Below, piece after piece: positions 13,436 to 16,333 of a stretch of 64,000 nucleotides of DNA. Position 1 is the stretch's first letter, and the number at the start of each line of letters is the position of its first letter. Origin of the DNA: Saccostrea echinata (Eukaryota); assembly GCF_033153115.1 (NCBI RefSeq), contig NW_026889754.1, positions 12,586,001 through 12,650,000 of the forward strand, written 5' to 3'. Below the pieces are notes generated by a model. It searched no databases. It was given only the letters and a program-made list of their open reading frames with translations, and was not told the origin of the DNA. Position numbers and translations under genes: made by a program.

Positions 13436-14765
13436 CTGATATTAAAAGTTGTAATATTTAAGAGATCAAACGTACTCCCCAAAAGGGAGTACCTCTCCTC
13501 CACCTCAGGGTTGGTGCTACTGTAATAATTACAGTTCAATATGAATATAAAATACATTTTAAAGGAAAAAAAAAATCAGGTATGATTTGAACAAAATAAA
13601 TCACTTACTCATCACTTATTGTGATGATATCCAGAATGGGACGTTGACTGTAAAAAAAAAATAGAAATAAAAAAATAAATAAATAAAAATCGATGTTTAA
13701 TAATGATATTCAAAAAGAATATATATATTTGTATTTTCAGACTAATTATTGCATAAATATACTAACGGATTCCTCAGCGGAGCATTTGGCGCCTGCCTGT
13801 ACAGAAGAAAATAAAAGGGGGAAAATAGTTAAAATATTTTTACTAACAATTTAGAAGATGAAGTTTGGCCAAAGTCCTTTTAGAAAAAAAAATACTAACC
13901 CCAATGCCGCCGCGGGGCGCCGAGGGGTCTCGCTATAAAAAAAAGCAAAGGATACACAATTTGCAAATGAAAGAGTATACACTATTGCCTTTAATATGAA
14001 GTAGAGAAAATTGCCTAAAATCATGACGAAAACAATACTAACCCTGTTGACATCACTTGGCGTCTACGGGGTTCTCTATTTTTACAGAAAAAAAAGCGTC
14101 GAATACATAATTTGAATATTAATTAAAGAAGGTATAATTTCATTTTTATTGATTATTTTCTCTCGAAATTTTCCGTAAAATAAACTTACTCAGTGGGTGT
14201 ACTGAAAAATGAGATAAAAATGCAAATTGAAAGATGATCTTTTATGGTAACATTAACAAATGTCAATTTTAAAAGAAAATGATTTTAAATATAATCATTA
14301 ATCTTGATTATGAAAAAAAGAATTAATGTATGTTAATTTTATCCGATCATAATACCTTCGATGAGAATTATTTATGATGAACTAAGTGAAAAAAAAAGGA
14401 AATCTTTTCAAGTAGAAGTAAAAATAGGTAAAATTATGGGAAATACCTAGTGACTGGCGCCCTTCTCTTATTGGAATAGTAATCCATACTATAAATGAAA
14501 AAAACCCAGAAATTAATATTTGACATACCTGATGCTTAAGAATAACATCCGAAGAATCATAACTCCAGGAAAGAAAAAAAATACTCACGGGCATGGCAGC
14601 CTTCCAAGCTGCACACAGATAGTGGTTAATTTTTCTACAATATCTTTAATGTCATCGCAAATGCATTGCCTTAAAAAAAAAGGAAATAAATATCTCTGAA
14701 AAGAAGTTTCGAATTTTTTTTTTCCGACTAAAAAAAAAAATGAAAATCATGAAGTACCGTTCCAT
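13436..14765 (-). CDS. Micro-exon gene, copy A (exons 1-9; terminal exon absent or not recognisable)
   Basis: GT-AG exons 14758-14765, 14589-14669, 14447-14488, 14190-14201, 14043-14075, 13900-13932, 13767-13796, 13609-13647 and 13436-13519 splice into one open frame homologous to 53642-55128. Confidence 0.85.
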
Positions 14766-15301
14766 GTTAAAACTGGGGAGGGGGGGGGGTCCAAAAAGAA
14801 GGAGTGAAGATTAGCGCGTTTTTCCTCTTTTTTATATGGTGAAGAGTCAGTGTTAATTATTGTTACTGAATTTTGATTGGTAAGGGTATCCTAACAACGA
14901 AAAAAAACCGGTTTTTCTTTTCTTCATTTTTAAAGGAAAAATTTAAAATTGTTAAAGATGACCTAATATGGTAAAACTGTGTCATACAGGACCCCTCCCC
15001 GTGTAGTCGAAAGAACTCGCGAGTCACAAATTGAGTAAAATTAATAGAAAAATGCGGGAACACCCCAGACAACAATAGATAAAGACAATAAATAAAATTT
15101 TTCTAATACGGGTGATAATGAATCAATTAAGGGGGCACGTTAACTGTGTTAGTAGGTAATCATTGTTTGAATGTACTTCATGTCCCATTTCAATAAAATA
15201 AAATACATCCGAGTCATTTACCATTCCAAATTTTGTATAAGCGGTTGTAATTATCAAAAAAAAAGATTTTATTTCCTCCGATTTTGCATTGATAAAAAAA
15301 A

Positions 15302-16291
15302 ATGGCATTACGTATTATTTTATGGTTGATGACCACTTCTTTCGTCTATGGGTGCGATCTTTCTCAGGAATGCACATATTCTTTGGAATTTGCCCAGTGT
15401 CCTGGGAGGAGGCCTGTGTGTTTTCTGGTAGATTTGTACAGGTTAACTGTTGGATCAAGAAAATCTGGTCAACGTCCCCCATAGAACAACTCCTGATTAA
15501 AGGAAATTGTCCAATAGAGAACTACAAGAGATTCTGCCATGACAGGGTCAAGTTCATCGTCATGTTGGACTCGGACGAGACTTTTACCTGTACAGGTAAA
15601 TAAGTGTTTGGGACTTTTTTTCTATTAAAGTTTTTTTTATTGAATGAATCGTTTCAGATATTTAGATGTACTCTATCATTTAAGTGTAAAAAAATATATA
15701 TTCGTCTAATATGCTTTGTTTATAACTCCCGTATAATTTTAATATCTCTTAAACTCTGTAATTAACCACCTTACATCTTATAAGAATAAAAGTGGGGGGG
15801 GGGGGGGGCGTATCCTAAAAAGAGAAATGGTGAACGTGACATAGTTTTTATCTGCGCCGTTACTTGGGTGAAACGATGAGAAAGCGTAATTTGATACACT
15901 CTACCTGTACTGTACCTCATTGAAATTGATGATCGAGCAAAATTGGAAACGTGAGAAAACTCCACCTACTGTTAATTTTATGTAATTGCGCTTTGCCATC
16001 ATTTCGCTAGGCGCCATGCTCTGTAAAACTGTCTTCAAACGCGGTCAACCCAAACAGAATTGTGAAGGTATGAAAAAAAAGAGTAAAATATTTTTAATCA
16101 TTTTCAAGGTAAAGAAAAAAATAATTAGTGGATTTTTTTTATTTTTGTATTTGTATAGAAATGACTTCGTCGGCGCCAGCGGTATCCACCGTATTGGATA
16201 ATGAAGAACGTGAGTTCATAAGTGTTGTGCACTGATCTGTAGAAATTCTGAAAATGATAAATCAAATGCAATATTCCGTGTTTATGAGTTT

Positions 16292-16333
<42 letters not shown>

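Follow-up and report, generated by a model that had tools for sequence, protein, structure and literature searches.

Predicted mature mRNA sequence diverges faster than introns, mainly at synonymous sites, in accessory genes of an oyster Maverick family

Mavericks (Polintons; adintoviruses in PMC8502044) possess, according to the available parts of that paper, pPolB, an rve integrase, an adenoviral-type protease, inverted termini and accessory genes that include predicted membrane proteins. The oyster element described here resembles them in these features. It differs in that three of its accessory genes are predicted to be spliced, one of them with 12 exons; within the available parts of PMC8502044, the string 'splic' is absent and 'intron' appears once, in an unrelated context.

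In their mode of evolution, these spliced genes recall three other described systems. In venom PLA2 (PMC7285919) and conotoxin (PMC3862624) genes, introns are far better conserved than coding exons, as they are here. The available sections of both papers report that KA approaches KS and that UTRs are conserved, whereas in the oyster genes dN lies well below dS (0.11 versus 0.76 in the micro-exons, 0.30 versus 1.6 in exons B and C of the glycoprotein gene) and the UTRs, as inferred, evolve fast rather than being highly conserved. Primate L/M opsins also show exon divergence, including synonymous divergence, that exceeds intron divergence between recombining copies. The available part of PMC3213168 describes conversion of opsin introns, conflicting exon and intron trees and the maintenance of two fixed functions; here, exon distances tend to follow local intron distances, in copies that are nonetheless mosaic, at least six lineages are involved, and non-coding exonic sequence is affected. 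Micro-exon genes of Schistosoma, as far as the available text of PMC4350168 and PMC10526429 goes, likewise form runs of short symmetric exons and evolve fast in a host-parasite setting. Their exons, mostly symmetric, span 3-81 nt; ours span 6-84 nt, with one (84 nt) just above that range. The Schistosoma genes encode secreted proteins and have long introns and raised dN/dS (PMC4350168, available text), unlike the oyster gene, which has no signal peptide, introns of 40-245 nt and low dN/dS. Homology is not claimed. Judged by titles and the beginnings of abstracts, with subscription journals thinly covered, the literature searched contained no report of such a pattern in Mavericks. Divergence of exons above introns is thus known from toxins and opsins, but, in the available parts of these sources, not in a mostly synonymous form that includes UTRs.

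A cassette of predicted spliced accessory genes in a Maverick

We analysed a 64,000-nt stretch of the Saccostrea echinata genome (the window), which holds two copies, A and B, of a gene cassette (Table 1). It forms the end of a Maverick/Polinton family at which the spliced accessory genes lie, an affiliation that the original prediction on this point did not mention. The terminal inverted repeats of the Maverick carrying copy B (33183-33411 versus 56339-56111) are 99.1% identical, and a matching terminus also flanks the remaining cassette copies. Pfam searches identified its protein-primed family B DNA polymerase (PF03175, E=4.5e-48, 42615-47093) and retroviral-type integrase (PF00665 plus a chromodomain, 37008-38132). 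The ORFs at 39053-40366 and 41210-41851, for which the Pfam search gave no match, are candidates for the major capsid protein and packaging ATPase, judging by size and position. Copy A belongs to the same family but is truncated, and a different Maverick is nested in it at 13405; at the locus that matches the nested terminus (L057), the cassette continues beyond that terminus.

A search of the 923-Mb genome yielded 11 cassette copies with 77-100% identity. They group into seven lineages (A/c2/c3, c4, c8, c10, c11, c5/c6 and B/c9), and 10 of the 11 lie on two contigs where Maverick matches abound. Neither window copy is intact: exon A of copy A has a frame break, and copy B has lost an acceptor and contains an in-frame stop. 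The accessory genes are part of an active Maverick lineage, of which repeated insertions into the host genome provide samples. Among 7999 scored candidates, the sole protein homologue was an uncharacterised Saccostrea cucullata model (84% identity).

Table 1. Features of the cassette and of the Maverick carrying its second copy (window positions; exon limits were set at GT/AG sites)
Feature	Position	Strand	Remarks
Terminus of second Maverick, nested in copy A	13220..13405		just past exon m9; 100% match to L057:3521-3706
Cassette copy A	13405-20356		recurs inverted at 47583-55003
Exon m9, 84 nt	13436..13519	-	micro-exon 9 of the original prediction
8-bp hairpin within m9	13472..13492	-
Exon m8, 39 nt	13609..13647	-	encodes I-I-T-I-S-D-D
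Exon m7, 30 nt	13767..13796	-
Exon m6, 33 nt, GC-rich	13900..13932	-	slow exception: lineages differ by 3-9%, excluding c10
Exon m5, 33 nt, basic	14043..14075	-
Exon m4, 12 nt	14190..14201	-
Exon m3, 42 nt	14447..14488	-	micro-exon 3 of the original prediction
Exon m2b, 6 nt	14529..14534	-	AG/GT flanks, frame kept
Exon m2, 81 nt	14589..14669	-	CxC and predicted amphipathic stretch
Exon m1 (ATG + 5 nt), copy A	14758..14765	-	GT donor, kept in 10 copies
Spacer between head-to-head genes	14766..15301	.	TATA-like box near 14828-14837 (-); first ~40 nt inferred 5' UTR
Glycoprotein exon A	15302..15595	+	signal peptide and 8-Cys domain; copy A frame-broken by 1 nt; dS 0.16
Glycoprotein exon B, 57 nt	16011..16067	+	two Cys; hypervariable
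Glycoprotein exon C, 45-51 nt	16159..16209	+	hypervariable
Glycoprotein exon D	16598..17227	+	Ser/Thr stalk, TM helix, tail
Gene T main exon, 325 nt	17686..18010	+	hydrophobic helix and basic tail
Gene T 3' exon, inferred non-coding	18190..18243	+
Maverick with copy B	33112..56420		~23 kb; copy B at one end; inverted termini
Integrase	37008-38135		in Maverick carrying copy B
Adenoviral-type cysteine protease	40374-40820		PF00770, E=3.8e-7
pPolB	42612-47093		in Maverick carrying copy B
Cassette copy B (second, inverted)	47583..55003	-
Exon m10, copy B	55083..55145	+	acidic, indel-rich; in-frame stop in B and c9
Last exon of micro-exon gene, copy B	55324..55377	+	1 nt, TAA, ~44-nt inferred 3' UTR, ATTAAA

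The micro-exon gene of copy A, on the minus strand, has ten exons of 8, 81, 6, 42, 12, 33, 33, 30, 39 and 84 nt. Two further exons in other copies bring the gene to 12 predicted exons, all shorter than 90 nt. All nine internal micro-exons of copy A (6-84 nt) are multiples of three in phase 2, and length differences in the gene are mostly multiples of three as well. By inspection, the product has no hydrophobic N-terminus. The motif encoded by m8 is a putative SUMO-interacting (SIM-like) motif. Exon m2 is strongly recoded, with up to 37% nucleotide difference between lineages; a homologous exon is present in other subfamilies. In m9, the only frozen synonymous run is the hairpin stem, whose five codons are invariant in seven copies, whereas seven of the eight other amino-acid-invariant codons vary. 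The last exon could be readable in another frame in some copies. The transcription start in the spacer was placed from sequence. Contigs from four of 11 listed runs, none of the 11 a small-RNA library, aligned to copy B at 82% likeness; none of the seven joints listed matched a predicted intron, and the contigs span introns and exons alike, which is compatible with expression or with none.

A gene for a type I membrane glycoprotein (exons A-D) lies head to head with the micro-exon gene. The acceptor AG of exon B is missing in c5, c6, B and c9. The NCBI model, an automatic annotation, joins exons A, C and D at the predicted junctions and skips B; it is closest to the lineage whose exon B has no acceptor AG. 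The exon A domain was modelled confidently by AlphaFold, with a pLDDT of 82.5. It had no Pfam match and no usable Atlas match. Foldseek comparison of its model with PDB and BFVD gave nothing at E<=0.001, and the best VIA Z was 4.2, compatible with a known fold. Gene T, the third spliced gene, follows the glycoprotein gene, and its start codon is apparently split by an upstream intron.

Divergence of exons, introns and flanks

We measured divergence between copies A and B, for which the original prediction had given hand counts suggesting that exons outrun introns. All these counts hold within a base or two. For micro-exon 3, said to differ at 10/42 nt, mostly synonymously, 9 of 39 internal nt and the first base differ (6.5 synonymous and 2.5 non-synonymous internal changes); the intron before it, put at ~8/100, differs at 4/40 and 3/54 in two pieces. 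Exon B (17/52 in the prediction) differs at 18/54 internal nt, and the contrast between a strongly changed exon C and a near-identical next intron was recovered as 17/48 (codon alignment) versus 29/358. The 22/84 reported for micro-exon 9 became 22/81 internal nt, with 14/89 in the next intron.

Pooled over the micro-exons, pS was 36.5/76=0.48 and pN 0.10, compared to 81/927=0.087 in introns. After correction, micro-exon dS was 0.76 (95% 0.49-1.21) and dN 0.11, and intron divergence was 0.098, or 0.075 without sites adjacent to gaps and homopolymers. For exons B and C together, dS was ~1.6 (lower bound 0.67) and dN 0.30. At four-fold sites, 19/44 differed versus 162/1771 in introns (p=6e-9). 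The ratio dN/dS was ~0.14 in the micro-exon gene and ~0.14-0.2 across the fast exons. Between lineages, the synonymous sites of predicted mature mRNA change at ~5-15 times the rate of introns, promoter and flanks. These counts establish that exonic and non-exonic DNA of the mosaic lineages differ in rate, chiefly at synonymous sites, with the proteins remaining under purifying selection while the mRNA letters change.

Not all exons are fast. The long exons A and D had dS of 0.16 and 0.19, ~2 times the intron level, and 169/272 and 280/636 of their 24-nt windows are near-identical between copies A and B; in exon D, the first half is slow, and the stalk end and tail are fast. Slow micro-exons are m6 (2/30) and m4 (0/9). 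Counts were made without exons frame-broken in a copy, m6 of c10 (a microsatellite), the final 12 codons of exon D and, in c4, c9 and c10, the whole of that exon, m2 of L116, L121 beyond m5 and the micro-exon gene of L119. As lineage pairs are not independent, disjoint pairs were used where stated. Exons and introns were compared by distance ranks and counts.

The excess extends to non-coding exonic sequence. When TATA, initiator and poly(A) motifs are used to place their limits, the inferred UTRs at both the 5' and the 3' end show 2-5 times the divergence of promoter and flanks. The inferred 3' UTR of the micro-exon gene differed at 150/608 compared to 0.07-0.12 in flanks, and at 29/115 versus 134/1454 in three disjoint pairs (p=2e-6). 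For the inferred 5' UTR, the values were 32/284 versus 62/1253 in the promoter (family 2), 27/110 versus 58/640 (subfamily S2), 6/19 versus 25/425 in introns and promoter (S3) and 5/15 versus 12/89 (S4). The spacer is slow (26/535 between A and B), and promoters may simply be constrained. In gene T, the first 24 codons had a pS of 0.52-0.79 in nine of ten lineage pairs and 0.28 in c5-B, with introns at 0.07-0.08; the hydrophobic helix is recoded with conservative swaps. The non-coding 3' exon of gene T differed at 100/529 versus 89/1768 downstream, and the intron before it is slow (101/1253). The 3' flank of the glycoprotein gene was not fast (0.07-0.12).

Distant Maverick subfamilies hold the same head-to-head gene pair, and the exon excess recurs in three of them (S2, S3 and S4), making four in all, on several contigs. 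For S2, m2 differed at 19/81 versus 16/538 in non-coding sequence between L118 and L121; between L118 and L116, two comparable short exons showed no excess. Exons differed at 36/150 versus 25/425 in S3, and at 49/140 versus 73/374 for introns in S4, from which two rows with a mis-cut i3/m4 boundary in L112 were dropped. The comparison did not include subfamily S5 (L125-L128). Intronless core genes had a pS of 0-0.07, and pPolB 0.03-0.18, between lineages, values that are confounded by recombination between core and cassette.

We next considered base composition, CpG decay, alignment and assembly as sources of an artefact. GC content is 26% in introns and 51% at four-fold sites, and differences are 1.6-1.9 times more frequent at G/C than at A/T sites. 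The effect of composition or CpG raised in the original prediction does account for part of the excess, ~1.5-fold. At A/T sites alone, the A-B pair showed no significant difference (1/13 versus 49/1263, p=0.41); across all 21 lineage pairs, which are not independent, A<->T changes reached 35/175=0.20 compared to ~0.05. The remainder of the excess survived the base-matched non-CpG test, with 13 four-fold differences observed versus 3.4 expected from base-matched intron rates between A and B, and 24 versus 9.6 in three disjoint lineage pairs. Exon dS thus remained above intron divergence after base and CpG correction, the comparison set in advance (non-CpG four-fold sites 13/34 versus 149/1704, p=4e-6). 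The changes respect the reading frame, and the pattern is found in four subfamilies on several contigs. An artefact is hardly credible; the pattern in these spliced Maverick accessory genes is real, replicated and unusual.

Possible causes of the exonic excess

Neutral decay, which the original prediction had dismissed, indeed does not explain the pattern. In four recently split pairs, micro-exon pS was 0-0.015 and intron divergence 0.005-0.027; since sister copies show no excess, the divergence must date from the separation of lineages rather than from decay of inserted copies. The excess is already present at low divergence (c2-c4, 5/45 synonymous versus 7/450 intron differences, p=0.002). 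The idea that very short exons help was not borne out, as the 325-nt exon of gene T is equally fast. Nor were the 6- and 12-nt exons spared (four-fold 16/45, versus 72/230 and 62/136, in family 2); the 12-nt exon is near-invariant in S2.

We assessed the shared history of exons and introns by ranking their distances. Exon distances rank like those of flanking introns (m2 rho 0.83, p=0.008; m3 rho 0.90, p=0.011; p<0.05 in five of eight exons), as expected of a rate difference on a shared genealogy. This gave no support to exon-limited import from outside donors, one form of the exon-level gene conversion suggested originally, and no intermediate donors were found: the best candidates scored for m2 were ten family copies and one distant match, and among the best candidates for exon A, identity dropped from 76% to 48%, partial matches of frame-broken copies aside. 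The step at splice sites is sharp, with intron divergence at 0.08-0.13 to within 5 nt of the exon and 0.17-0.26 inside it, with no shoulder in introns next to exons and little taper at exon ends.

Old exon alleles might instead be kept by balancing or diversifying selection on the protein, with recombination or gene conversion homogenising the rest, as in opsins or the MHC. Exons that are symmetric and in the same phase would make crossovers in introns harmless, and the copies are mosaic. Core sequence is 97-99% identical between copies, compared to ~85% for the cassette; A and c4 differ by 0% in m3 and 23% in m7, c4 and c10 by 7% in m7. Between c5 and B, exon-sized islands (m2 31%, exon B 18%, gene T 53/292) stand out from a background of mostly 1-8%. 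Intron sites look young (129 of 204 variable columns are singletons), and gibbon opsins provide a precedent in the available part of PMC3213168. Diversifying selection on the protein, also proposed at the outset, fits exons B and C, where dN exceeds intron divergence, and fails for the micro-exon gene with its low dN/dS. The fast UTRs are hard to explain by such alleles, above all the non-coding exon of gene T behind its slow intron, and so is recoding between identical proteins: the m2 proteins of c4 and B are identical, and 7/16 of their synonymous sites differ. Synonymous divergence was 118/238=0.50 where no amino acid changed within three codons, and 0.62 near changes; all 28 exon pairs differing by no more than one amino acid gave a pooled 50/230=0.22, lower because m6 and recent shared tracts are included. 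The absence of a shoulder in introns and the agreement of exon with intron distances also count against this account, which would need breakpoints in nearly every 40-240-nt intron. We consider it rather doubtful.

Alternatively, synonymous sites in exons could be the neutral clock, with introns, promoter and flanks ~90% constrained and the long exons and core genes recently swept. A dN/dS of ~0.14 and conservative swaps are typical of old genes under purifying selection, and S4 introns are ~80% identical where exons barely align. The splicing of micro-exons and a compact genome are possible causes of constraint, and sequence around micro-exons is conserved in other animals. Such introns would be expected to mix frozen and saturated columns, and they do not: three or more states occur in 18 of 204 variable intron columns versus 5 of 13 four-fold sites (p=0.006), although uniform weak constraint still fits. 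Synonymous sites of exons A and D and of pPolB lie near the intron level in the same lineages, the introns are rich in indels and microsatellite expansions, and the long exons and core genes would have to be swept separately. Constraint of this extent appears unlikely.

A further possibility is mutation targeted to mature mRNA sequence, by error-prone cDNA- or RNA-templated rewriting or by a local mutator, with purifying selection as the filter. It would cover exons and UTRs together and yield sharp edges, and a low-fidelity polymerase has been hypothesised for conotoxin exons (PMC3862624, available part). Against it, no precise intron loss was found in the aligned copies, the single absent intron (L112) leaving a GT..AG remnant. 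The four-fold sites showed no deaminase-like spectrum (distinct state pairs AC 22, AG 21, CT 13, AT 12, CG 11 and GT 7). The long exons remain slow, and no excess is seen in inserted copies. We regard targeted mutation as very unlikely.

The best explanation, with a probability of about 0.4 on the sequence patterns, may be selection to change the mature mRNA sequence itself, for instance to evade small-RNA guides that endogenous copies give rise to. Guides of this kind belong to general piRNA biology. The host would make antisense small RNAs (piRNA/siRNA) from endogenous copies, and these would pair with and destroy the cytoplasmic mRNA of circulating elements. Letter changes in spliced mRNA that the protein tolerates would be favoured, and introns, being removed in the nucleus, would escape the pairing. 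The pressure would be strongest on transcripts needed early, such as those of the micro-exon gene and gene T, and diversification at the protein level may add to it in glycoprotein exons B and C.

Among the readings, we infer, selection on mature mRNA letters alone accounts for synonymous sites, both UTRs and the non-coding exon behind a slow intron while needing no special mutator. The fast inferred UTRs, together with recoding in the absence of nearby amino-acid change, support it indirectly. Four observations argue against escape from small RNAs: exons A and D are slow although they share an mRNA with B and C; the core genes are slow in spite of being large targets; exon ends show little taper, with tiny exons unspared; and four-fold sites show no clear transversion excess (seven transitions and 12 transversions versus 76 and 86 in introns). 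In its full form, the proposal would place oyster Mavericks in a nucleotide-level arms race with small RNAs from their own endogenous copies, in which the whole spliced mRNA of some accessory genes, including synonymous sites and both UTRs, is positively selected to change, dS lies ~tenfold above neutral, and introns are the true clock. At somewhat less than even odds, this remains a tentative view.

Implications for Mavericks and their hosts

Under any explanation, dS is unsafe as a neutral clock or as the denominator of dN/dS for these Maverick genes. Spliced micro-exon accessory genes in Mavericks escape ORF-based annotation. Their built-in intron control makes them a clean system for studying exons that outrun introns in toxin and immune genes. 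If escape from small RNAs proved true, synonymous and UTR change far in excess of intron change would mark the transcripts targeted by host RNA defence, and endogenous DNA-virus copies as heritable immunity in molluscs would become testable. The pattern would then parallel, in eukaryotes, the way phages escape CRISPR spacers, and assemblies alone would suffice to read it.

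Exon B and other glycoprotein features

The acceptor AG of the predicted glycoprotein exon B is missing in two lineages of the family, through different lesions: its bases were altered in c5/c6, whereas in copy B and its relative c9 it was removed by a 13-nt deletion whose end coincides with the exon start. In the distant Maverick subfamily S2, the two-Cys segment equivalent to exon B likewise lacks a nearby AG, but its pattern of change is still of the coding type. Exon B may be repeatedly skipped or served by a non-canonical acceptor.

The cytoplasmic tail of the copy B glycoprotein ends in T-V-Y-E-Y-V, which resembles a tyrosine-based switch motif; this end is changed in the A lineage. 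Two loci (L110 and L113) each carry a pair of divergent glycoprotein genes from different subfamilies, arranged head to head and 1-4 kb apart, that may represent nested or recombinant elements.

Small exons and introns

In exon m9 of the micro-exon gene, the hairpin has kept its nucleotide sequence unchanged, whereas the synonymous sites beside it are saturated; in copy c11, one arm of the hairpin is deleted. At the place of the 6-nt exon of the window's family, S2 has an AG followed directly by a GT, which could be an exon of zero length or a site of recursive splicing. At L112, intron 1 of the micro-exon gene has undergone an imprecise loss that left only a 9-nt GT..AG stretch, which is read in frame. 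An intron also seems to split the start codon of gene T between A and TG, and a 36-nt segment inside it, bounded by AG..GT, may be an alternative exon.

Coordinates of the features (window positions unless a locus is named)
Feature	Window	Other loci
Exon B acceptor-AG loss	52446-52432 (copy B)	L033, L034, L036
Two-Cys segment, S2		L110, L116, L119-L121
Glycoprotein tail end, copy B	51190-51215	
m9 hairpin	13472-13492	
AG-GT site, S2		L118 about 5240-5250; L116, L121
First-intron remnant		L112 about 3770-3800
Gene T start	17443/17686	
Further genes of the window's Mavericks: one with a BIR (inhibitor-of-apoptosis) domain, others with a PC4 domain	36102-36644, 35115-35624, 10549-11208	
66-bp and 437-bp tandem arrays after copy A	20354-24263	
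GDSL/OSK-like ORF	60072-61586	
Core genes beside c4 and c8		L032 8218-9403; L053

Surrounding mobile DNA

The 437-bp arrays downstream of copy c10 are related to the array of that unit after copy A. The ORF that matches GDSL/OSK-like and zinc-knuckle sequences probably originated from another mobile element. Copies c4 and c8 are followed by Maverick core genes that share only 66-70% identity with those of the window; the cassette may therefore be able to move between cores, or these may be nested elements.
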